Below the pieces are notes generated by a model. It was not told the DNA's origin. It saw only the letters and a program-made list of their open reading frames with translations, and did not search any database. The position numbers and the translations under genes were made by a program. DNA of 49,653 nt from Escherichia phage BUCT-XGG-1, in sequence record PP069513, one strand, 5' to 3'. Shown piece by piece: positions 564 to 48,123 of the stretch; position 1 is the first letter of the stretch; every line of letters begins with the position of its first letter.

Positions 564-779
564 GTGCATCAAGACAATTTCTGTAGCCGCCACCGCGCGG
601 CACTTGAAGCCGGACTCAATGAAGAGTGGGCGCTCAATGTTGCTTACGGATGCATCGAACTCGATGACGCATTGGGCGTTATGGATATGGATCTGGAAAG
701 CGAAGGCAACCAGTCAGTAGACGGAATCGGTGATGACTTCGACTACCGCTTAAAATTTGATGACGGCATACCGTTCTAA
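564..779 (+). CDS. small acidic protein ending in SSB-like tip (FDDGIPF)
   Basis: GTG start with GGAG RBS; very acidic; C-terminus DDGIPF resembles the SSB C-terminal tip DDDIPF. Confidence 0.5.
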   Translation: MHQDNFCSRHRAALEAGLNEEWALNVAYGCIELDDALGVMDMDLESEGNQSVDGIGDDFDYRLKFDDGIPF

Positions 780-785
780 GGAACC

Positions 786-1028
786 ATGATGAAAATTCTC
801 TGCAAAAACGTAATCACCAGCACAGACAAGAAGGTTCTTACACCATTCGTTAAAGGCTATGTATACGACGCTGAGCCGCTAATCATTAACGGTAAGACAA
901 TCCCGAACGAGTGGGTGATTAATGGCGCTGAGCGACCGCATAAGCACGATTCTGGCTGGATTGCTATCGCTGCATGGCCCAGCGGATTTGCCATCATTGG
1001 CATCGCAACGTTTGACGAGGTGAAATAA
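786..1028 (+). CDS. hypothetical protein (80 aa)
   Basis: ORF in tight early gene array. Confidence 0.45.
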   Translation: MMKILCKNVITSTDKKVLTPFVKGYVYDAEPLIINGKTIPNEWVINGAERPHKHDSGWIAIAAWPSGFAIIGIATFDEVK

Positions 1029-2246: not shown

Positions 2247-3830
2247 ATGTTTGATTTCAACGAAGATAAATTGTCAATCGATCAGGTCATGGCTGTAGCA
2301 GCTGCCGATAACCTGCCACCTTTGCGCGTTGCCATCAATGCGAACGGATACAGGCAGAGCCAATCATTCTGGAAAGCCCCAACAGAAATTGACTCAGGCG
2401 GTGACAAATATCCGGTTATCTCACTTGGTAACGATTATGATGTCGTTGGTAAGCTGTCAAGCAATGCCGCTCGTTCAGTTCAGTTCCCCGAGTCGTCCGC
2501 TTACATGCATTTCCTCGGATGCATATCAGCCGCCATGCTGGGCAGATTTACGGTTGAGTATCACGGAACACAACAGCCTACCGCGCTGTACGTCGTAACC
2601 AGTCAGCCACCATCGACAGGTAAATCAGCCATCAACTCACTTTCGCTGGCCCCGATGATCGCAGAGACTGAGCGACTCAACGAGATCAGAAAGCGTGACC
2701 GCAAGAAGATTATGGCTAAGCTCTCCGCTCTATCCAAGGAGATGAAGCAGGAGAAATCACCGTCTGACATGGCGGCGCTGTTTGAGGAAAAAGAAGAACT
2801 GGAAGAAAAACTGGAGCGACTTTGTGACATCGTGTTCCCCGTATCCGACACCACGCCGGAAGGTCTTGCGCGAATCAACAACCGCCAGGGAAACTTTGCA
2901 GTGATCTCGGATGAAGCAACGAGCGTGAACTCACTGTTAGGCATGACCTATGGTGATGGCTCGAAGAAAACGAACAGCGAACTCGTTCTTAAGGCGTGGG
3001 ATGCTGGTAACGTATCTATCGCGCGTGCGAACGCAGACAATAACATGAGCTTCATTGCGATGGGCTGCATATCTGTAATTGCACAGGATGAAACGATAAA
3101 CGCGATCATGAACGCTGGCGCGCGTGGTATCGGTGTATCCGAGCGTTTCCTGCTTGTGCGTGAGAAGTCATTCCTTGGTGAGCGTGTGTTCGTAGATGAG
3201 AAAGGCGAATCAACATATGAGCCGATTGATGGCGGACTCAAGGCGGACTACTTCCGTCTGGTCCATGAGATCATGAGCGAACACGAAGTCAACCTGACAG
3301 TGAGCACGTCGGCGATGAAATATCTCAACCGTGCGCGTCAGGATATGGAACCTCACCTTGCGGACGGCGGTAAGTATTCACACACAATGCTTCGCGGCGC
3401 GCTGGGTAAGTTCGATAAGCAGGCTATCAGGATCGCGGCTGTTCTTCACACTGTGCGTAACTGGTTTAATCCCAATGGCGGGAGTCCGCAGAAGTCCAGA
3501 GAGATTGAGCTTGACACAATGCAGGAAGCAGTAATTATGTTCCAGGAACTGAGTAAGACCTATCTGTCATCTGCAAACGCTGCTGGTCATGCTGGCGACC
3601 ATGCGGAGATGAATAAGCTGATCGATATTCTGATCAAGCAAGGTAAGAACGGGAAAGGCGTTGTAGGTGTCCGATCCCTATATGAAGCGGCTCGTAAGGT
3701 TAAGCCATTCGAGGGCCAGGCTGGCGTAATGACTCGAATCAAAGACCATCTGATCCCTATGCTTGATGAGAAAAACTATACGTGCCTGATTGGTGATAAA
3801 ATTTACATTAATCCGCGACTGCTGGGGTAA
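2247..3830 (+). CDS. large early protein with P-loop-like motifs (527 aa)
   Basis: RBS AAGGAG; Walker A-like PSTGKS and Walker B-like VISDEAT; N- and C-terminal segments repeated in 47566..48123. Confidence 0.6.
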   Translation: MFDFNEDKLSIDQVMAVAAADNLPPLRVAINANGYRQSQSFWKAPTEIDSGGDKYPVISLGNDYDVVGKLSSNAARSVQFPESSAYMHFLGCISAAMLGRFTVEYHGTQQPTALYVVTSQPPSTGKSAINSLSLAPMIAETERLNEIRKRDRKKIMAKLSALSKEMKQEKSPSDMAALFEEKEELEEKLERLCDIVFPVSDTTPEGLARINNRQGNFAVISDEATSVNSLLGMTYGDGSKKTNSELVLKAWDAGNVSIARANADNNMSFIAMGCISVIAQDETINAIMNAGARGIGVSERFLLVREKSFLGERVFVDEKGESTYEPIDGGLKADYFRLVHEIMSEHEVNLTVSTSAMKYLNRARQDMEPHLADGGKYSHTMLRGALGKFDKQAIRIAAVLHTVRNWFNPNGGSPQKSREIELDTMQEAVIMFQELSKTYLSSANAAGHAGDHAEMNKLIDILIKQGKNGKGVVGVRSLYEAARKVKPFEGQAGVMTRIKDHLIPMLDEKNYTCLIGDKIYINPRLLG

Positions 3831-9602: not shown

Positions 9603-10081
9603 TTTTTCGCTCCGTGGTTTTTATGGAACCCATTGGTTGACTCTGTAAGTTTTCTTGCTGAGATTGCATCGGCAAGTGACCTTCCTTCGTATAGGAATTT
9701 TTTCTTACCGCCAATCTGTATCTGTGCTACCCATGTCTTATTCCTTGACTTCCAGTTAACTCCTGTAACTCCGCTTTTGTTGTTTGAATACATCGACTTG
9801 TTAAGCATGTTATCGCCGCGACTAACAAGCCTTAAGTTTTCTATTCTATTATCAGTTCTTATGTGGTTTATGTGGTCAACCTCCATTCCGTTCGGCATTG
9901 GTCCGTTATGCATTACCCAAACTATGACGTGAGCGGGTTATGACTTCTTTTTGTACATGACTTTAATGTAACCTTCGCTGTCTATAGTGCCGGCTAAGTC
10001 TCCCTCATACACCTTTGCGCTGGGCTTTATAGCCCAGAATAATAATCCATTTTTATAATTCAGTATGTTATTAAAAATCAT
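9599..10081 (-). pseudogene. HNH-AP2 homing endonuclease interrupted by in-frame TAA
   Basis: ATG at 10081 (ATGA overlap with helicase stop) gives MIFNNILNYKNG...YKKKS then TAA at 9938-9940, then in frame PAHVIVWVMHNG...DHINHIRTDNRIENLRLV; full-length paralogs at 17492, 36060, 12801. Confidence 0.6.
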
Positions 10082-12180
10082 AAGTTACCGTCCAATCCGA
10101 AATCCTTACGTGAGATAATATCCTCACCTTTTGCATTCTTGCGGTGAGTTACCCGCACCGGATGTGCTATGTGGTGAGCGTTGTTTAAAATCATTTTCGC
10201 ACTTCTGTAAGCTGCCATTAATTTTGCGATCTTACTGTCATGCACGTGAGGTAATACCCCTTTTTGTTTCCATATCGTGTGGCATACCTGCGCCGTTGAC
10301 TGAGGGAAGAACTTCTCATACGCGATGAAATTAACTCCCACTGAGTCTGTTAGGTCGTAACGATAAAGAATACCAGTCTGATTGCGTGTCAGCGTTACTT
10401 CAAAACTGTTCACTGTGCACCAGTCGTTTTTGGTGTAAGCCTTACCAGTCAGATTATCATTTGGATCTTTCAGACTCACGTCACAGCAACGGCATATTCT
10501 CGCCACTACGTCATTCTCAGCGCCACATCCCTTAACGATAACCTCACCAGTGCGATCATCAACCTGATCCTCACAAATACGAGACTTCCAGAAATACTCA
10601 CAACGATTGCCGTTTTCGTCCCTGTGAATGCAGCGGCGGGCGTAAAAGCTGTTCTCGGTTCCGCACAGTTCACATTTTTTCGTCTCTTTCTTACCATCGA
10701 AGCGGCGCTGGTACTGAGCCTCTTCAAGAATCGGATCGAAGTAAAGCTGACCAAGCTCATCCATCGTGCCAGCGAAATCCCATACCAAGTGATCTTCTTT
10801 CACCATTCCCATCGCTTTTTGCCACGGCTTAAGCAATCGCATACCTCGACCAAGCAACTGTATTAGCAGGGTAAGTGAGCCGATCTTGCGCATGATTACC
10901 GAAAAATCCCAAAACGGAACGTTAACGCCAGTGGTTAGCGCTAACACCTGGAATATGTATTTGATCTCGCCACGGTTCGCCGCCTCCAGTATCGCTTGTC
11001 GTTTTTTGGTGTTCGTCTTCTCCGTGATGATCTCATAGGTAGCGTCAGGTGGCAGATAGCTCGCCGCCTCTTTGCAATGGCGCTGGCCTGAACACGTAAT
11101 CAGTACACCATTTCGCTTCTTCGCCTCTTCGACTACCATTCCCATTATTCGCTTGGTCATGCTGGCGTTATCATGGATTTTCTTCTCCATCGCCTTCATT
11201 TCTTTCTGACCGAAGTCAGCCGTTCCATCCTGACTGGACGCCTTAAACTCATCCAGATCATATCCAGCGTCACCGACACTTCCGAAGATTGTTGGAACAA
11301 CAGAGCCGAACTCAATCAGGTAGCTGGTGTCGATGTTAGTAACCTGCTCACGCCAGAATCCTGGAAGCTTAGGGTTATCGACAACAATTGGCGCTGTTCC
11401 TCTGAACTCCGAACCAGTCATGCCGAAGATGCGTAATTCCTTCCCGTTCTTCTCTTTGCAGCGGCGCATCAATTCAGTGATTATGATCGTGTACTGGCTT
11501 CGTTTTGTTCCAAGAACAGGCTCGCCAGTCTTCCGGCTTATCAGCAATTGCTTATCCATCACCTGAACGCCAACCTCTACGCCATCAAGGTATCCATTGA
11601 CATAACCTTCGCTGTTTTTCGGGTAGTCAACGAATACACGCTCATCCTTTTCAGTGAGCATCATTTCAATCGTCTCTTCGTTGTCGATGGCGGCGGCAAG
11701 GTCTTCCCAATCCACCTGGTGACATTCATCAATACCCAGCACCATAGGTGTAAAATCACCAAGCGCCTTAAACAGACCGTTCGCAACCGAACCTTCCGAA
11801 CCGACAACGATAGGGAAGTAAGCTGATTTTGTGTTCAGTCCAGCACAGTAAACTGAGTTAGGAACACCGAAGTTTGAGATCTCCTCACTATCCTGAGCGA
11901 CTATATCGCCCTGACGCGCCAGTATCATCATCGACAGGCCCATTTCTTTTACGCGCGATGCAATCATGGCAAAGCCGATCGTCTTACCTGCCGACACTGA
12001 CGCTTTAACGATGAATGGATGCTTATAGCGAGCAATGCGCTTGCCGATCTCGTCATACATTACGCACTGATACTCATAAGGAACCATGTCGCCAAATGTG
12101 AATTTATCCTGAATCTCTTTAATCTTTTGCGGGCCAAGTTCTTCTATCTGTTTTTTAATGGATTTAATGCGCATAGCCAT
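10078..12180 (-). CDS. SF2 DExH-box helicase with C-terminal Cys-rich region
   Basis: Walker A SAGKT, DECH box (GIDECHQ), C-terminal CxxC zinc-finger-like clusters. Confidence 0.8.
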   Translation of the reverse strand: MAMRIKSIKKQIEELGPQKIKEIQDKFTFGDMVPYEYQCVMYDEIGKRIARYKHPFIVKASVSAGKTIGFAMIASRVKEMGLSMMILARQGDIVAQDSEEISNFGVPNSVYCAGLNTKSAYFPIVVGSEGSVANGLFKALGDFTPMVLGIDECHQVDWEDLAAAIDNEETIEMMLTEKDERVFVDYPKNSEGYVNGYLDGVEVGVQVMDKQLLISRKTGEPVLGTKRSQYTIIITELMRRCKEKNGKELRIFGMTGSEFRGTAPIVVDNPKLPGFWREQVTNIDTSYLIEFGSVVPTIFGSVGDAGYDLDEFKASSQDGTADFGQKEMKAMEKKIHDNASMTKRIMGMVVEEAKKRNGVLITCSGQRHCKEAASYLPPDATYEIITEKTNTKKRQAILEAANRGEIKYIFQVLALTTGVNVPFWDFSVIMRKIGSLTLLIQLLGRGMRLLKPWQKAMGMVKEDHLVWDFAGTMDELGQLYFDPILEEAQYQRRFDGKKETKKCELCGTENSFYARRCIHRDENGNRCEYFWKSRICEDQVDDRTGEVIVKGCGAENDVVARICRCCDVSLKDPNDNLTGKAYTKNDWCTVNSFEVTLTRNQTGILYRYDLTDSVGVNFIAYEKFFPQSTAQVCHTIWKQKGVLPHVHDSKIAKLMAAYRSAKMILNNAHHIAHPVRVTHRKNAKGEDIISRKDFGLDGNL

Positions 12181-13273: not shown

Positions 13274-14218
13274 ATGAATGAGCCAAATTACCAGAAAGAA
13301 GAAGTGCTGCCGTATATGAAGGGATTATGGCGTGAAGCGTTACAATCCATTTGTGGCTTGCAGTCCGGCGTGTTCAATAAGAAGCACCAACCATGCCCTT
13401 ACTGCGGCGGCAAGGATAGATTCCGGTGGACTGACGAACTAGACTCCCCTGGTGACGGCGGCGCGATCTGTAACGGATGTGGTAACGATAAAGGCGTCGG
13501 CTGGATGATGAAACTGACTGGTGAGCCTTACAGTGAAGTGATTAACATCCTTGGTCGATTCCTTAGTAAAGTTCCGCAGGATTACAAAGCTAAGGCTTAC
13601 CGCAGGGCGTCTCGCGTACCGGAGAAAGGCCTTGGCAAGATGGCGGATCATGAGTCGTGCGTATCTGTAATGGAACGCACAGAAAAGCGCGAGAGCACCG
13701 ATTTAAGCGTGTATGAGTGCCTAACCGAAGATTCATATGATGTTGGCGTAAAAGTGCGTCAGAATGGCACTGAGGAGCTAATACACGCACTACCGTGCTA
13801 CATGGTCCACCATGACGGAATTGATGAGGATATGTGTAACGTCATGTTTGCTTATGATAATGGCGAATACACTTTCCTTGCGCGTGATTATTCTCGCGGC
13901 TCAGTGGTTAAACTGGGGGGTGGCGAGGATGATGCAGCTATATATATGACAAGCGATCTGATTGATGGTTATCGTGTGAAGATGGCGACCAGTCAGGAAG
14001 TGTGGGTGACTTTCTCCCCTGAGAATCTTGAGATTGTTGCTTATCGGTATCGTGGCGAACGTGAATTGCGCGTAGCGTGTCCTGCTGATGATTTGCGAAC
14101 GCTTTACATGGCAGATGAACGTGATTTAAAAGTTGTAGTGCCGAACGGAGGAAACTTCAAAATGGGCCTTGAGCGAAAGTTATATACGCCGCAGGATCTG
14201 ATAGATAAGTATTCATAA
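13274..14218 (+). CDS. DNA primase-like protein with zinc-ribbon
   Basis: CPYCGGKDRFRW ... CNGCG zinc-binding motif typical of phage primase N-termini. Confidence 0.6.
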   Translation: MNEPNYQKEEVLPYMKGLWREALQSICGLQSGVFNKKHQPCPYCGGKDRFRWTDELDSPGDGGAICNGCGNDKGVGWMMKLTGEPYSEVINILGRFLSKVPQDYKAKAYRRASRVPEKGLGKMADHESCVSVMERTEKRESTDLSVYECLTEDSYDVGVKVRQNGTEELIHALPCYMVHHDGIDEDMCNVMFAYDNGEYTFLARDYSRGSVVKLGGGEDDAAIYMTSDLIDGYRVKMATSQEVWVTFSPENLEIVAYRYRGERELRVACPADDLRTLYMADERDLKVVVPNGGNFKMGLERKLYTPQDLIDKYS

Positions 14219-16268: not shown

Positions 16269-16718
16269 TCAGAATGGGATGTCATCATCGAACTGGTTTT
16301 GCTGCTGCGGTTGCTGCTGCTGGCGTTGTTGCTGCTGAGGCTGCTGACGTTGTTGCTGCTGGCCTTGGCCCTGCTGTGATGGCTCACGCTGGCTGAATTG
16401 CAACTGAGGCCGGATCATCTCTGCGGTTACATAAACAGTGCCGTCATTACCCTGGCGTGACGCCAAGTGAAGCGTGTCGGCAGAAATTGATACAATCTTA
16501 CCTTCCTTGAACGCTTCATCATACCACTGCATAACGTTTTCTTTTGCGAAGAACGTAGCGCGGTAGTTACTGTAAACCGTCTCATCCTCGCCCTGTTGAT
16601 TGCGAATCTTCATGCGTTCTGACAGTTCGACGGCGTACATTTTCCAGCGCCCGTTGTTGTTGCTGCCTTCTTTGGTAAATGGTGCTTTTCGGATCTGACC
16701 AGTGATTACGTGTGGCAT
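16269..16718 (-). CDS. ssb: single-stranded DNA-binding protein
   Basis: Gln/Pro-rich linker and acidic C-terminal tip DDDIPF characteristic of bacterial-type SSB. Confidence 0.85.
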   Translation of the reverse strand: MPHVITGQIRKAPFTKEGSNNNGRWKMYAVELSERMKIRNQQGEDETVYSNYRATFFAKENVMQWYDEAFKEGKIVSISADTLHLASRQGNDGTVYVTAEMIRPQLQFSQREPSQQGQGQQQQRQQPQQQQRQQQQPQQQNQFDDDIPF

Positions 16719-16758: not shown

Positions 16759-17415
16759 TTAGAATTGCTCGATGGATTCAGATTGTACAGGTTCGGACGG
16801 TGCATTTGCAACCTTGTCTTCAACCTTTTGAGTATCTGCCTTTTTCGCTGGCTGGAAACCGCGAGCGTTACCGATACTCAGTTCAGCCTTGCGCTTCTGC
16901 AAGTGGTCTTCTGCAATCTTCCATTCCGCCGCGCCAAGCGAACCTTTCGCGCTCTTATAGATCACCTGGAGGTCTTCCAGTTTTTCACAGTTGGTGATAA
17001 GTTTTTTGTAGTCCGCTGCCGTGCGCTTCGCGATTTCAGCGTCGTCATCGCTCTGAGTGATTCCAAGCGCTGCGCACAATGCGTAACGGCGACCGTATGA
17101 GGTTGTTGAGCCGTAAGCCTGGGCGCTAATCTTCTCGATCGGCATATTGTACTGGAACGCAAGCCACTCGCCGGAGCTGTGAAGTATGAGTGTCTCAATG
17201 TGCATTACCTTCTCGGTTGACGTGTCAAGATTTGACTGGATAACCATAAGGTCATGCTCTTTTAGTGCTGGCTCAACAGCCTCCAGAACGTCCGTCAGGT
17301 TTGAGTAATGGTTTTTCAGGTGAGTGTTAAATCCTGATTTTTTTGCGATAGCAAACTGCTTTTTAGCTGCAATTAGAGCGGCTGAAACATTCGAAAACTT
17401 CTCTGATGTACGCAT
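16759..17415 (-). CDS. Erf-family single-strand annealing protein
   Basis: GSTTSYGRRYAL-type motif of ERF recombinases; next to exonuclease and SSB. Confidence 0.7.
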   Translation of the reverse strand: MRTSEKFSNVSAALIAAKKQFAIAKKSGFNTHLKNHYSNLTDVLEAVEPALKEHDLMVIQSNLDTSTEKVMHIETLILHSSGEWLAFQYNMPIEKISAQAYGSTTSYGRRYALCAALGITQSDDDAEIAKRTAADYKKLITNCEKLEDLQVIYKSAKGSLGAAEWKIAEDHLQKRKAELSIGNARGFQPAKKADTQKVEDKVANAPSEPVQSESIEQF

Positions 17416-17495: not shown

Positions 17496-17950
17496 CTGCC
17501 ATGCCTTAAAGTAAAATCACCATTCATTGAGATGTATCTTTCCCTTGCCTCTTTCGCTTCAATTGCCGTGTTGAAACTACCAAGGCTTTTCTGCACTCCA
17601 TTTACCTTTACCCTTGCGTTCCATTTACATCTTTGCTTAACAAAAACAACACCTGTGAATCCTGATGTGTTATTTGACTGCATCTTTTTATTTTTATTGT
17701 TGATGGCTCTAGTTACAAGTCTTAGGTTTTCAATCCTGTTATCACTTCTTATTCCGTTAATGTGGTCTATCTCGTAACCTTCTGGTATAGGTCCGTAGTG
17801 CATTTCCCATATAACCCTATGATATAGAAACTTCACATAGTTAAATGAGATCATTAAGTACCCGTTACCTTTCGGTGTTCCGGCAATCTTGCCGCTTTTT
17901 ATCCAGTAAAGGTTGCCGTCTATGTATTTTAATTTCTCATTGAAATTCAT
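17492..17950 (-). CDS. HNH-AP2 homing endonuclease
   Basis: EIDHINGIRSDNRIENLRLV HNH core and AP2-like C-terminal region; inserted between exonuclease and Erf. Confidence 0.8.
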   Translation of the reverse strand: MNFNEKLKYIDGNLYWIKSGKIAGTPKGNGYLMISFNYVKFLYHRVIWEMHYGPIPEGYEIDHINGIRSDNRIENLRLVTRAINNKNKKMQSNNTSGFTGVVFVKQRCKWNARVKVNGVQKSLGSFNTAIEAKEARERYISMNGDFTLRHGR

Positions 17951-18981
17951 AGTATTGACTCAAATTGCTTCATTACCCATGGCGGCGTCTCCAGTTCGAC
18001 TTCCGGCTCGCCATTATTGTATGAAGGCCACACATCATTGGCTTCGCACATTGAAAAGGTGTGAATCACGCTCATGTACTGCGCTCGCCCAATCTTAAGC
18101 TGATCGCCACTCATCCGGTACGCCATAGGCAAGTAAGGTTCTTTCTTCTCCTGGGCCAGCAAGCGCACAACCACAGGTCGCGTTTCCTCAAAGCATTTAA
18201 CGAACAGGTCACGCTGCAATGCCATCTTGAGGTAATATCCAAGGTTGAACGCCAGGCGCGGGAACTCGGTCGGGTTGGCGCTCATTGTCGTTTTGTAATC
18301 AGTGATGACGACGATTTCAGGGTGAATCTCAGGATCGTAACCCATGCGCCGAATTGCTTCTGGATCATTAATGATGTCAACATGGTCAAGTCGCACCTTA
18401 ACTTTAACGCCACATATTACGCCGAACAAAGAATACTCACGGAATGCCGTTTCGCTGTTCATGCAAGCGTTATGCTCAGGAATCATTTCAAGAACCTGGC
18501 GCATACTGACGCAAGCGTCGTAGTCTTCCGCCTTAACCAGTTCCACGCCATCTGCCCACGCCTGACATTGTGCGATCATATCAATCAGCCACATGACGTT
18601 GAGGTCTTCTCCGCAATCAACCATCATCTTGATCAGCTCTGGATATTGCTTGCCGCTTGTACCAGTCAGGCCAAATGATTTTAATTTCGTTGCCAATGCC
18701 GCCTGGCTAGTGATTACGTTTTCAATCTCGCTATCTTTCGGTGCACGGCGATACTGGCGTTCAAACAGTGCCTTACTCTCGAAATTGGTATGCGACTGCG
18801 TACCGAAGACCAGTGCCTTAGTCGTCGAGTTCATTTCAAACTTCCACGCCGCAGGGCAAGTACTGTGGATCTTGCTGAGTGACGAACCTGATACATACTC
18901 GGCGGTCCACTCATCTTTGCTGTGGTAAAAGTCGTTGCTCATTTCTTCTGACGTGAAGTATTGAAACAGTGGCTTTGTCAT
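17947..18981 (-). CDS. PD-(D/E)xK recombination exonuclease
   Basis: RLDHVD ... ITDYKT motif consistent with a PD-(D/E)xK nuclease; partner position to Erf. Confidence 0.55.
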   Translation of the reverse strand: MTKPLFQYFTSEEMSNDFYHSKDEWTAEYVSGSSLSKIHSTCPAAWKFEMNSTTKALVFGTQSHTNFESKALFERQYRRAPKDSEIENVITSQAALATKLKSFGLTGTSGKQYPELIKMMVDCGEDLNVMWLIDMIAQCQAWADGVELVKAEDYDACVSMRQVLEMIPEHNACMNSETAFREYSLFGVICGVKVKVRLDHVDIINDPEAIRRMGYDPEIHPEIVVITDYKTTMSANPTEFPRLAFNLGYYLKMALQRDLFVKCFEETRPVVVRLLAQEKKEPYLPMAYRMSGDQLKIGRAQYMSVIHTFSMCEANDVWPSYNNGEPEVELETPPWVMKQFESIL

Positions 18982-41452: not shown

Positions 41453-41529
41453 TGGCGTTCAGCGCTGGACTCGAACCAGCAACTAAGACTTAGGAGGTCT
41501 TTGCGTTATCCTGTTAACGCCAGCAGAAC
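41453..41529 (-). tRNA. tRNA-Arg (anticodon CCU)
   Basis: Hand-folded cloverleaf: D stem GCGT/ACGC, anticodon stem AAGAC/GTCTT, loop CU-CCU-AA, T arm GCTGG-TTCGAGT-CCAGC, encoded CCA; acceptor stem has one U.U mismatch. Confidence 0.65.
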
Positions 41530-43355: not shown

Positions 43356-43401
43356 ACTATAACAAAACCCGCCGGAGCGGGTTTAGCAATTCGTGCTATT
43401 T
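43356..43401 (-). promoter_or_regulatory. box promoter candidate
   Basis: Box 43382-43401 abutting TAA of kinase gene; hairpin CCCGCTCCGGCGGG; TGTTATAGT (22-bp gap). Confidence 0.5.
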
Positions 43402-44020
43402 ACCAAGGAATATCGTCGGCCCAATCATCATCCATTGAAGGACTAACCAAGCAAGCGCGAACTACTTTAAGGACGCCATCATCAACATCACCATTTACCA
43501 GATGCACATCATGCTCGTTATATTTCTTGTAATCAGGGAAGTGCGATTCCTTGATGCGGATGTAATCACGGCTATCTCCCGCGAAAGTCTTGCCATCCAT
43601 GAACAAGCGGACCAGGGTAACATCGTGACCATCTTCAACGAGTCGAATCACTTCATCGGGGAAGCCGCCATCAGTGCAAACAAAACAGAAGCCTTCATCA
43701 CACAGACGGATATGTTCGCTCATCAATTTGCCGAACTGCTGATTGCCAAAAAGCGGCTTGACCACCGTTTCGCTAATCCAGATCATGAACTCACGGCAGG
43801 TCTTGCCACCGAGAAAGACCTGAGGCTGCTCTTTCTGATCGCGGTCGTCGTATGCTGTGATGAACTTTGAAAAAGCCCTGGCCCCAAGGATGGATGCTGC
43901 AATCTCAAACATCGGACGTTTGAAGCTGGTAGGGATGCAATTGTAATCTGCTGCCAGTGCATTGCCGATCGTGTCTTTACCTACGCCAGCAGGGCCGTTT
44001 AGAATGATAATCTTTGACAT
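43400..44020 (-). CDS. P-loop kinase (dNMP kinase-like) with SSB-like tip DDIPW
   Basis: Walker A GPAGVGKDT; C-terminus DDDWADDIPW. Confidence 0.6.
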   Translation of the reverse strand: MSKIIILNGPAGVGKDTIGNALAADYNCIPTSFKRPMFEIAASILGARAFSKFITAYDDRDQKEQPQVFLGGKTCREFMIWISETVVKPLFGNQQFGKLMSEHIRLCDEGFCFVCTDGGFPDEVIRLVEDGHDVTLVRLFMDGKTFAGDSRDYIRIKESHFPDYKKYNEHDVHLVNGDVDDGVLKVVRACLVSPSMDDDWADDIPW

Positions 44021-44069: not shown

Positions 44070-44687
44070 TTATTTACCGCTTACGAGATTGCATTTTTTG
44101 CACTGGCGAACGCCATGTGGAGGTAGCGGATCGCTAAATTCGTGCTCGCAAACTTTTTCTACGCCGTGAGACTTAAGTCCAGAGTGCACGTTGTCGCCAT
44201 AGTCACACACCTGATAGGTGGTGATGCCGAGGCTTCTGAAGTGCGCGATAACGCTAGGACTATCATCAAAGGCCGCAGTGATGCGGTGCAAGCCAATGTA
44301 TCGTAAAAATTCTTCCTTGATGATCGTATCCTTTCGATTGTCATCAGCTTGGCGCATGACCAGAAAGTTGTATTTAGCGCCAGCATCATACAGCCATTGC
44401 GTTGATTCTTCAACAACTGCATCCGATCGACCAGTAAGTACGATGATGAAAGCGCCGGAAGCGAACAGGCCATTCATTACGTCAATCGTTTCCTGGAATG
44501 GCGTGTCGAATTTACTCAGTGAGTTAAATTCAAGCCATGACTCAGTGAGGTGTAAATCTTTGGTCGGTAGCTTATGCAGGCGGTGAGTTCCGTCTGACAG
44601 AGTGCCGTCGAAATCAAAGCAGTATACTTTTTTATTGACTGCAACTGTTTCTAAATGGTGTTTAATCATGGTGTATAGCTGATTCAT
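44070..44687 (-). CDS. HAD-superfamily phosphatase
   Basis: HAD motif I FDFDGTLSD near N-terminus; C-terminal Cys pairs. Confidence 0.65.
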   Translation of the reverse strand: MNQLYTMIKHHLETVAVNKKVYCFDFDGTLSDGTHRLHKLPTKDLHLTESWLEFNSLSKFDTPFQETIDVMNGLFASGAFIIVLTGRSDAVVEESTQWLYDAGAKYNFLVMRQADDNRKDTIIKEEFLRYIGLHRITAAFDDSPSVIAHFRSLGITTYQVCDYGDNVHSGLKSHGVEKVCEHEFSDPLPPHGVRQCKKCNLVSGK

Positions 44688-45136
44688 AGTAAGTATCCTG
44701 TAGTTATCACTCTGTATGCTGTTCTTTTGCCAACTCCCATTGCGTCAGCTATATCCTGATAGGTCATGCCATCAGTTCTCATTCTTAACATCTTTCTTGA
44801 GTCTTCGCTAGTTACTATTGACTTCGGGTTCTTAAGCCCCTCAACGCTTCGGAACCTGCCCTTCGATACGCAATCAATCACGTTATCATGCTGACTACCT
44901 ACCGATAGGTGCTTTGGATTAATGCAAGAAGGATTATCGCATGAATGCATTATTACACCTTTTACGCATTCATAATCTACATCATTGCTTATGAAGTAAG
45001 CTACTTTGTGCGCCCTTCTAGTAGCTCCAGCGTATCTTACCTGGCCATATCCATCAACGGTCCTTGAGTTATTCCACTCTATACAATCATCCGTCTGCCT
45101 CCTTATCATTATTATTAATTCATCTACCTTTTTCAT
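44684..45136 (-). CDS. HNH endonuclease with C-terminal HTH
   Basis: HSCDNPSCINPKHL HNH/zinc motif and C-terminal HTH (MTYQDIADAMGVGKRTAYRV); 4-nt overlap with phosphatase. Confidence 0.65.
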   Translation of the reverse strand: MKKVDELIIMIRRQTDDCIEWNNSRTVDGYGQVRYAGATRRAHKVAYFISNDVDYECVKGVIMHSCDNPSCINPKHLSVGSQHDNVIDCVSKGRFRSVEGLKNPKSIVTSEDSRKMLRMRTDGMTYQDIADAMGVGKRTAYRVITTGYLL

Positions 45137-45167: not shown

Positions 45168-45212
45168 ATTATACCAGTCAGGATGAATCCCCTTTTAACA
45201 AAAAGTGCTATT
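45168..45212 (-). promoter_or_regulatory. box promoter candidate
   Basis: Box 45194-45212 containing TAG stop; hairpin GGGGATT..AATCCCC holding TGGTATAAT (22-bp gap). Confidence 0.5.
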
Positions 45213-46014
45213 TGATATAGAACTGAGCCACTACGCCACCATCAGGATTTATGATTGCGTATGCGTCACCGAGCGTTGCCTTGGCATTCATAACCTTACC
45301 AATTCTCCTGGCTTCCCAACGGTAATCACCTTTTAATCCAGAGCAGAAGGCATCTTGCGTGATTTGAATAAGTCGCGGATCACATCCTGGTTCGCATTCA
45401 TCAATTTCATACGCGTACTCGCAACCATTGATAAACTCATTGCCTCCAACATGGTAGCAAACCGCCACCTTGCGATCGCGTGCTGATTCACATTCACCCA
45501 CCGCCCATACGTGACGATTGCTATAACCGTAACCTCCGCTTCGTGGTTCCATTTTCGCGGTTGACATGGTAAGCGCCTTGCCTTCACCGAAATTGCTACC
45601 GAAAGTGAACTTGGCATCTTTCGTCAGGTAATCAAACTTTACGCCATCATCTACGACGGTTTTCCCTGAGCCAGCCGCAAGCTCATTCACGAATGCATCG
45701 ACAGTGCTGTGACACGGATCGCCATTGTACTTAGGCAAATCCTTGAGCAATTGCTCACATGCTTCGTGAATCAACTTTCCAGCCACCGCTTTGAGGATTG
45801 CTTGCTCAACATGGTCAGCGATAATCGACGGTGAAGAAATTTGATGTTTTTGAGTCCATTCTAAGGCCTTTAAACGCTCCTGTAACGAATCGATTTCTTG
45901 CTTATGCATTGCGTAGGATACCCATGCTCCATCGTCGCAGGCTTGCATTCCGACGCCGTGAATGTTGACGCTGGTTGCCACTGCTACATGGTTAAAACGG
46001 TTGATGCTGTTCAT
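45208..46014 (-). CDS. hypothetical Cys-rich protein (268 aa)
   Basis: ORF after box promoter; no recognisable motif. Confidence 0.5.
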   Translation of the reverse strand: MNSINRFNHVAVATSVNIHGVGMQACDDGAWVSYAMHKQEIDSLQERLKALEWTQKHQISSPSIIADHVEQAILKAVAGKLIHEACEQLLKDLPKYNGDPCHSTVDAFVNELAAGSGKTVVDDGVKFDYLTKDAKFTFGSNFGEGKALTMSTAKMEPRSGGYGYSNRHVWAVGECESARDRKVAVCYHVGGNEFINGCEYAYEIDECEPGCDPRLIQITQDAFCSGLKGDYRWEARRIGKVMNAKATLGDAYAIINPDGGVVAQFYIK

Positions 46015-47525: not shown

Positions 47526-47571
47526 ATCATAGCTGACTACCCGATCCATTGTTTAGCAATTCGTGCTATTC
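47526..47571 (-). promoter_or_regulatory. box promoter candidate
   Basis: Box 47552-47571 containing TAG stop of 47566..48123; hairpin GGGTA..TACCC with GCTATGAT (22-bp gap). Confidence 0.5.
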
Positions 47572-48123
47572 ACCATTCAGGAGTGATTTAGCTTTCCGAT
47601 AAAACTCGACAGCCTTTCTGACCTCATCTGCATCATAGCCATGAATCATGTCTGAGCTTGCCTGCAATTTGCTATGAGATTTGCGCTCAACCGATCTCCA
47701 TGAGTCGCACCACTTGTGAATGTCTCTCCCATACATGCCCACCAGGTATGGGTGTGCATATATCTTGTCACCAATAAGGCAAATGATTCCCGAGTCCTGT
47801 AGTGATGGTAGGATGTTGTCAATCAGGTTATTCATTACTCCATTACGCTCGACGAACGGCTGGACCTTTCTGATCGCCTCATATGTTGAGCGAACTCCCA
47901 CAACGCCTTTTCCATTTATCGCTTGCTTCCAGATCTTTTCAACCACGACGCATTGTTCACGATTTAGGTTTGCGCGACGCATAACTTCTAATTCGCACCA
48001 GTACTTTTGTGACTGTCGGTATCCGTTAGCATTGATTGCAACTCGTAGTGGTGGAAGCCCATCTTCCGTAGCAATCTTCACAATCTGCTCATCTGTCAGC
48101 TTCTCTTCGTTAAAATCAAACAT
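47566..48123 (-). CDS. mini-paralog of the 527-aa early protein
   Basis: N-terminus MFDFNEEKL..LPPLRVAINANGYRQSQ and segment NGKGVVGVRS..CLIGDKIY match the two ends of 2247..3830. Confidence 0.55.
   Translation of the reverse strand: MFDFNEEKLTDEQIVKIATEDGLPPLRVAINANGYRQSQKYWCELEVMRRANLNREQCVVVEKIWKQAINGKGVVGVRSTYEAIRKVQPFVERNGVMNNLIDNILPSLQDSGIICLIGDKIYAHPYLVGMYGRDIHKWCDSWRSVERKSHSKLQASSDMIHGYDADEVRKAVEFYRKAKSLLNGE

Follow-up and report, generated by a model that had tools for sequence, protein, structure and literature searches.

A T4 Dnk-like kinase of T1-like phages carries an SSB-type C-terminal tip, a putative docking peptide

There is a decades-old debate, mostly about phage T4 and based on biochemical evidence, over a physical coupling between dNTP synthesis and replication forks. 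In that phage, a dNTP-synthetase complex organised around gp32 has been proposed, and T4 enzymes have been reported to bind SSB; the T4 dNMP kinase is gp1 (PDB 1DEK). Docking through C-terminal tails has been described in two further systems. First, the C-terminal peptide of bacterial SSB (SSB-Ct) is bound by ExoI with a Kd of 98 nM, by Redbeta with a Kd of 10.6 uM, and with micromolar affinity by RecQ and Pol III; such binding depends on the terminal Phe, and that of Redbeta is abolished by F177A (PMC6393309). Second, in phage T7, the tails of the gp4 helicase and the gp2.5 SSB were placed at the same polymerase site, the gp2.5 tail being positioned with the polymerase-bound helicase tail peptide DTDF as its template (PMC12339929). 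An SSB-type docking tip common to an SSB and another replication protein is hence already known, as in T7. What appears to be new in the locus described here is the presence of such a tip on a nucleotide-metabolism enzyme, together with the breadth of its non-SSB carriers: in the open-access literature, we found no description of an SSB-type tip on kinases or other non-SSB phage enzymes.

The DNA analysed here (the window) is a stretch of 49,653 nucleotides from sequence record PP069513 of Escherichia phage BUCT-XGG-1. This siphovirus is T1-like and belongs to the Drexlerviridae; XT34, P817, ESCO41 and the BASEL collection's Braunvirinae phages are its closest relatives. For replication and recombination, the window encodes helicases at 2247..3830 and 10078..12180, a primase at 13274..14218 and an SSB, beside which lie the genes of an Erf-like annealing protein (16759..17415) and an ExoVIII-like nuclease (17947..18981). 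A repair exonuclease and a Dam methylase were also found. None of the scanned large ORFs of the window was found to encode a DNA polymerase, and none is annotated in T1. The features central to this analysis are collected in Table 1.

Table 1. Coordinates of the kinase gene, its neighbours and the tip-bearing proteins in the window.
Feature	Position	Strand	Basis
P-loop kinase gene (T4 Dnk-like core plus C-terminal tail), 206 aa	43400..44020	-	ORF translation
Walker A / P-loop GPAGVGKDT, aa 9-17	43970..43996	-	Sequence
C-terminal extension, aa 191-206, LVSPSMDDDWADDIPW, disordered	43403..43450	-	AF2, homologue ends, end of PHROG match
SSB-type tip DDIPW, aa 202-206; extra aromatic W199 at -7	43403..43417	-	
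Kinase stop codon TAA	43400..43402	-	
Terminator-like hairpin, 15 nt past the kinase stop	43365..43384	-	Consensus scan, pattern match only
HAD phosphatase, Pnkp type, upstream neighbour of the kinase	44070..44687	-	PF25109 HAD_PNKP, E=2.6e-17; PHROG 415
Phage SSB, 149 aa, Q-rich linker, ends QFDDDIPF; tip codons 16272..16286	16269..16718	-	PHROG 44
Third tip-bearer, 71 aa, ends KFDDGIPF; tip codons 762..776	564..779	+	PHROG 9085, unknown function

The kinase gene has an AGGA-type ribosome-binding site upstream of its ATG. Its product begins with MSKIIILNGPAGVGKDT, which holds the Walker A motif, and ends with ...SPSMDDDWADDIPW / ...VVRACLVSPSMDDDWADDIPW, followed by TAA. The predicted hairpin beyond the stop codon has an 8-bp stem with five G-C pairs and then a T-rich tail, suggesting that the transcription unit ends with the kinase gene, the terminator being a pattern match only. 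A sequence-only reading of the window had described the product as a dNMP-kinase-like protein with the Walker A GPAGVGKDT, and both the profile match and the predicted fold agree with this. PHROG 139, annotated as 'deoxynucleoside monophosphate kinase', matches residues 1-189 only (E=3.3e-44), while Pfam returned P-loop matches alone, all of them sub-threshold, and a PDB sequence search with the kinase family profile gave no significant match. The Walker A motif at the N-terminus is of the G-x4-GK[DT]T type, with G14, K15, D16 and T17 invariant in a 44-sequence kinase alignment. The AlphaFold2 model derived from this alignment (mean pLDDT 87.6, pTM 0.80) is confident across a core of residues 1-190, the last helix of which spans residues 179-190. 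It has the T4 Dnk fold, including the large helical NMP-binding insertion, at a sequence identity to T4 gp1 of only ~16%. The protein has no OB-fold DNA-binding domain: its folded part is a P-loop kinase, and only the tip is common with SSB. The model thus points to a Dnk-like small-molecule kinase, which, judging from its catalytic residues, is intact and apparently active; we infer the dNMP substrate from the fold alone.

Beyond this core lies the C-terminal extension, with the tail peptide SMDDDWADDIPW. The same reading had regarded its end, DDDWADDIPW, as an appendage to the kinase resembling the tip of SSB, and both elements of that description stand. As to the appendage, it is situated outside the fold and is disordered in the model, with residues 197-206 showing a pLDDT below 50 and no docked conformation; since the PHROG 139 match stops at residue 189, it also falls outside the family profile. 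In a survey of 120 close homologues, and of 150 representatives at 50% identity, most of the kinases stop at the equivalent of residue ~192 (...IISDHLAK and similar), and a minority run 10-18 residues further, to end in [DEG]-[IL]-P-W. The tail is present in only 3 of the 150 representatives, and in the form seen in the window in only 22 of the 1,422 phage records in GenBank with a kinase homologue. Tail-less versions include those of T1 (ST62), PeterMerian and 4HA13; the last had been a candidate tail-bearer as its tblastn alignment reached residue 206, but its C-terminus reads ...IIWNLI and has no tip. The kinase of NBD2 (Vilniusvirus) carries a diverged tail, ...HHVDWSDDIPW. To the question of whether homologous kinases lack the tail, the answer is hence that most do, T1 included, and that one clade keeps it. 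Neither of the outcomes that the sequence-only reading had named as speaking against itself, namely absence from all homologues and inclusion in the conserved kinase fold, was found: the tail is conserved across one clade and is not part of the kinase fold. Given the many related phages without it and its loss in a few members of that clade, it is not essential.

As to the resemblance, the tail reproduces the register of the SSB tip position by position, with an aromatic residue at -7, acidic residues at -5 and -4, I/L at -3, P at -2 and a terminal aromatic residue. In the aligned tips, DW-A-DDIPW of the kinase corresponds to DF-D-DDIPF of E. coli SSB and QF-D-DDIPF of the phage SSB. Like the bacterial SSB-Ct, it occupies the extreme C-terminus in a disordered segment outside the folded domain, combines D-D-[IL]-P-[FW] with the -7 aromatic, and leaves the carboxylate of its terminal aromatic residue free (...IPW, then TAA). 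The phage's own SSB (PHROG 44, E=1.5e-26) has the identical DDDIPF, its last six residues being the same as in WMDFDDDIPF, the SSB-Ct peptide of E. coli (peptide from PMC6393309). Unlike the bacterial SSB-Ct, the kinase tail is borne by a protein without an OB-fold, ends in Trp rather than Phe, and follows a linker of only ~10-15 residues, as opposed to a long disordered one; the Q-rich C-terminal region of the phage SSB is likewise much longer.

The kinase, the SSB and the 71-aa protein make up the three tip-ending proteins that the sequence-only reading had counted in this genome, and a scan of the proteome gave the same three. Across the 80 predicted proteins of the window (15,486 aa), D[DG]IP[FW] occurs three times, in each case as the last five residues, where amino-acid composition leads one to expect 0.015 occurrences anywhere and 7.7e-5 at C-termini. 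The same set recurs in part among relatives: NBD2 has the tip on the SSB, the small protein and the kinase, as in the window; L125, a 20-kb partial locus outside which the SSB lies, shows it for the kinase and for the small protein; JulesPiccard, which is without the small protein, has it on the SSB and the kinase; and T1 has it on the SSB and the small protein ST6 (DDYIPW), alongside a kinase without the tail. A strict linkage between the kinase tail and the small protein was rejected, as JulesPiccard has only the former and T1 only the latter. Nor was there a signal of co-variation between the kinase and SSB tips in the protein ends compared (JulesPiccard, PeterMerian, T1 and NBD2), where the SSB ends in DDDIPF or NEDIPF whatever the state of the kinase. 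The T1 counterpart of the window SSB is ST27 (L138:32211-32633), a hypothetical protein in RefSeq, with a Q-rich linker and a DDDIPF tip. A distant kinase homologue, P0194, has a C-terminal extension of ~118 aa ending in ...ADEASTDF, which is acidic and Phe-terminal as in T7; an adjoining ORF on this contig of only 3 kb ends in ...VDFDDDCPF (the pair lies at L124:73-513 (+) and L124:1375-2217 (+)).

We then computed a neighbour-joining tree from the kinase core alone, with the tail removed. All tip-bearing kinases fell into a single clade, which includes a few truncated or tip-less members and consists of the window/Braunvirinae group, P0091-95, P0160, P0164 (locus L125) and NBD2 (locus L033). 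This clade corresponds to T1-like phages and suggests that the tail was acquired by the kinase once. Core identity across the clade goes down to ~43%, and the linkers within it are unrelated to each other (SPSMDDDWA, RPHHVDWS, VSNTYKYGE, IDKPERVE, FTFPEEL). In the tip itself, W at -1 and P at -2 are found in all 86 of the tail-bearing homologues compared, I/L at -3 and D/G/E/N at -4 in 84 each, D at -5 in 81, and W at -7, the second aromatic residue, in 61. The codons of the tip vary synonymously among lineages (GAC/GAT, ATT/ATC/TTA, CCT/CCC), and the constraint is therefore on the protein and not on the DNA. These patterns show that the tip has been kept by strong purifying selection at the protein level.

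We propose that the kinase tail is an SSB-type docking peptide, which would place the enzyme on proteins that bind the SSB tip; we give this putative role an even chance. Tethering is the best-supported reading, and we infer it from its fit with the purifying selection on the tip and with the T7 precedent. A lineage of T1-like phages has added a short disordered copy of the SSB tip to a T4-Dnk-like kinase, and under this proposal the tip would insert into a pocket of the SSB-tip-binding type, hydrophobic and beside basic residues. The pocket could belong to a host SSB-interacting protein, the candidates being the Pol III chi subunit, ExoI, RecJ, RecQ and PriA, or to a phage protein, such as the Erf-like annealing protein, the ExoVIII-like nuclease, the helicases or the primase. 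Docking would then hold the kinase either where degraded DNA yields dNMPs or where dNTPs are consumed: the former might be next to a dNMP-releasing exonuclease (host ExoI or RecJ, or phage Erf/ExoVIII), and the latter at the replisome via the chi subunit. As T1-like phages encode no DNA polymerase and use the host machinery, a tip of the host type would be a matching address. With Trp in every kinase and Phe in the co-resident SSB, the specificity of the kinase tip may differ from, or be narrower than, that of SSB-Ct. Profiling of tail-bearing (JulesPiccard, NBD2) versus tail-less (T1, PeterMerian) genomes for a receptor returned no phage gene specific to the former. It left 786..1028 (PHROG 4448) and a probably spurious antisense ORF; the former was rejected as a specific partner, being present in 142 phage records, including Rtp and Jk06, far beyond the 22 tail-bearing ones.

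The proposed arrangement resembles that of T7 in that a non-SSB enzyme and the phage SSB end in tails of one kind, acidic and with an aromatic terminus. It differs in that the T7 tails end in Phe without the I-P motif and dock on the phage gp5/thioredoxin polymerase, which T1-like phages do not encode; furthermore, the T7 carrier is a helicase-primase, whereas that of BUCT-XGG-1 is a metabolic kinase. It would also be unlike T4, since a kinase that imitates the SSB tip would compete with SSB for its partners rather than bind SSB. The kinase is a metabolic enzyme with a clearly selected short linear motif, and motifs of this type recruit proteins to DNA transactions that depend on SSB. The tail is also a simple and specific handle, and it is carried by the model phages Bas01-03 and NBD2; AugustePiccard, JeanPiccard and JulesPiccard, of the BASEL collection, are tractable relatives.

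The third tip-bearer bears on an alternative reading of the kinase tail. The family to which it belongs (PHROG 9085/9323) is represented in 334 Drexlerviridae phage records and displays a conserved N-terminal region of ~45 aa, an acidic linker and an SSB-like tip. The tip reads DDGIPF in the window, DDYIPW in T1 ST6 (L135:301-510), NEIPF in NBD2_78 (L136:301-534) and DEIPF in L125:185-445 (-), while the Tlsvirus and Warwickvirus members end in CFPF instead. Among 39 homologues of the 71-aa protein, 37 end in DDGIPF, one in DDDIPF and one in DEIPF. Towards proteins that bind the SSB tip, its members could act as adaptors or as decoys. If the decoy role extended to the kinase, both tails would compete with host SSB for the tip pockets of ExoI, RecJ, RecQ, PriA, RecG and others, protecting phage DNA or stopping host DNA transactions, and the kinase would be merely a carrier. 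Such a role is in keeping with the tip being on two non-SSB, non-DNA-binding proteins of one genome, with the small protein looking like a minimal carrier whose tip is conserved in 39/39 homologues, and with the binding of SSB-Ct peptides by host ExoI at 98 nM (PMC6393309). We nevertheless consider it rather unlikely for the kinase: the catalytic residues are invariant in the tail-bearing clade, suggesting that an active enzyme is being positioned; the role is already plausibly covered by the small protein, with its 334 phage records against 22 with the kinase tail; and the lasting link to one enzyme through the divergence of the clade would be left unexplained. A decoy role is thus more plausible for the small protein than for the kinase.

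A second alternative comes from the gene upstream of the kinase, whose product is a Pnkp-type HAD phosphatase. The phosphatase-kinase gene order is common to T1, NBD2 and L125, the pairing is conserved in these and many other phages, and the two domains are naturally fused in some metagenomic relatives, P0171 (461 aa) and P0180 (403 aa). In P0171 and P0180, the HAD domain precedes the kinase, which is the order of eukaryotic PNKP, and there is no SSB-like tip. Adjacency and fusion suggest that the HAD phosphatase is functionally linked to the kinase. The pair could accordingly be read as a two-gene Pnkp-like end-healing enzyme for DNA or RNA, with 5'-kinase and 3'-phosphatase activities, in which the tip would bring a repair module to where DNA is processed, instead of serving nucleotide supply. 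The conserved pairing and the single-chain fusions are what this reading explains, and in them the system is like the T4 and eukaryotic Pnkp, where a P-loop kinase is coupled to a Pnkp-type HAD 3'-phosphatase. The kinase domain itself, however, is not of the Pnkp type: a polynucleotide-kinase identity, to which the HAD_PNKP neighbour and the fusions had pointed, was set aside as the fold searches favour T4 Dnk, and a core resembling the small-molecule Dnk implies no polynucleotide substrate. We therefore regard end processing as distinctly unlikely. In the window, an HNH endonuclease gene (44684..45136 (-)) lies upstream of the HAD gene, and in T1 the HNH gene ST63 (L138:5465-5959) lies between the HAD gene and the kinase; this difference in position suggests independent homing insertions.

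To return to the SSB-type tip, we asked how it is distributed among other viral proteins by scanning IMG/VR for DNA encoding DDIPW followed by TAA, with the permuted IDDPW-TAA as a control. The search recovered at least 120 viral loci for the former versus 8 for the latter, that is, DDIPW-stop is at least 15-fold commoner in viral contigs than the permuted control. DDIPW closes ORFs of at least 57 aa in 116 of the 120 matches listed, and the tail-stripped ORFs of at least 60 aa among these form 27 sequence clusters. Many of the matches listed are SSBs, of PHROG 44, 18154, 9002, 1192 and 743 and of the gp2.5-like PHROG 112; with classic SSBs (PHROG 44) ending in DDDIPW in viral contigs, the SSB tip thus occurs naturally with Trp as a variant. 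The non-SSB proteins among the matches listed comprise a PHROG 16 helicase, an AAA_5 ATPase, Pam3_gp34-like and DUF6511 proteins, and the NBD2 kinase. Further, genes neighbouring the DDIPW-encoding ones code for an AEP primase ending in EEEIPF and a PolB-exo-like exonuclease ending in LDEIPF. Within the loci numbered L001-L120, L031 and L017 are examples with the helicase and L106 with the AAA_5 ATPase. In some loci, two tip-bearing proteins are encoded side by side: the AEP primase adjoins the Pam3_gp34-like protein in L023, L026 and L084, and the exonuclease adjoins an SSB in L098.

This distribution bears on the two remaining alternatives. SSB, gp32 and gp2.5 have acidic tails that bind the OB fold or DNA-binding surface of the same protein, and kinase active sites are basic. 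By analogy, the kinase tail might fold onto the basic nucleotide cleft of its own enzyme, or onto the ssDNA-binding surface of free phage SSB, resulting in autoinhibition or gating. We regard such regulation as improbable, considering that AlphaFold2 gives no docked tail (pLDDT below 50) and that neither the position-by-position copy of the SSB tip, with its I-P-aromatic end and -7 aromatic, nor the same tip on helicases, primases and exonucleases would be explained. Finally, a functionless neutral extension or chance resemblance, for which it can be said that most kinase homologues work without a tail, is effectively refuted, chance being excluded by three observed C-terminal occurrences per proteome against 7.7e-5 expected, by a tip invariant while the clade's linkers diverged beyond recognition and its codons changed synonymously, and by the at least 15-fold enrichment at viral ORF ends.

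The docking proposal for the kinase can be extended, more tentatively, to the other carriers. It is possible, though we would not call it probable, that the SSB tip is a portable address label that has been added repeatedly to unrelated phage enzymes, plugging each of them into the hub of host SSB-interacting proteins. The label would then sit on a nucleotide kinase and on helicases, as well as on an AEP primase, a 3'-5' exonuclease and an AAA ATPase, and also on small adaptor proteins. If this were true, the kinase would constitute direct sequence-level evidence that a virus couples nucleotide phosphorylation physically to its DNA replication or recombination machinery, a form of nucleotide channelling. 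More generally, the survey suggests a widespread use of SSB-type tips as modular devices for attaching phage enzymes to DNA-metabolism hubs of the host or the phage. In that event, a C-terminal [DE][DEG][IL]P[FW] could flag unknown DNA-metabolism proteins during annotation, with a further bearing on host takeover and on SSB-tip mimetics as antibacterials.

Some minor features of the window are worth recording. A 268-aa ORF at 45208..46014 (-), which has no PHROG or Pfam match, is kept in JulesPiccard (77% identity) and is absent from PeterMerian, T1, NBD2 and the partial loci L125 and L033. A single tRNA-Arg gene (anticodon CCT) lies at 41453..41529 (-); JulesPiccard has a tRNA-Arg reading AGA in a similar position. 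Lastly, the 185-aa protein encoded at 47566..48123 (-) (PHROG 7327) has a segment in common with the 527-aa helicase encoded at 2247..3830 (+) (PHROG 2373), within the last ~90 residues of the latter, and looks like a duplicated or stand-alone version of the helicase C-terminal domain.
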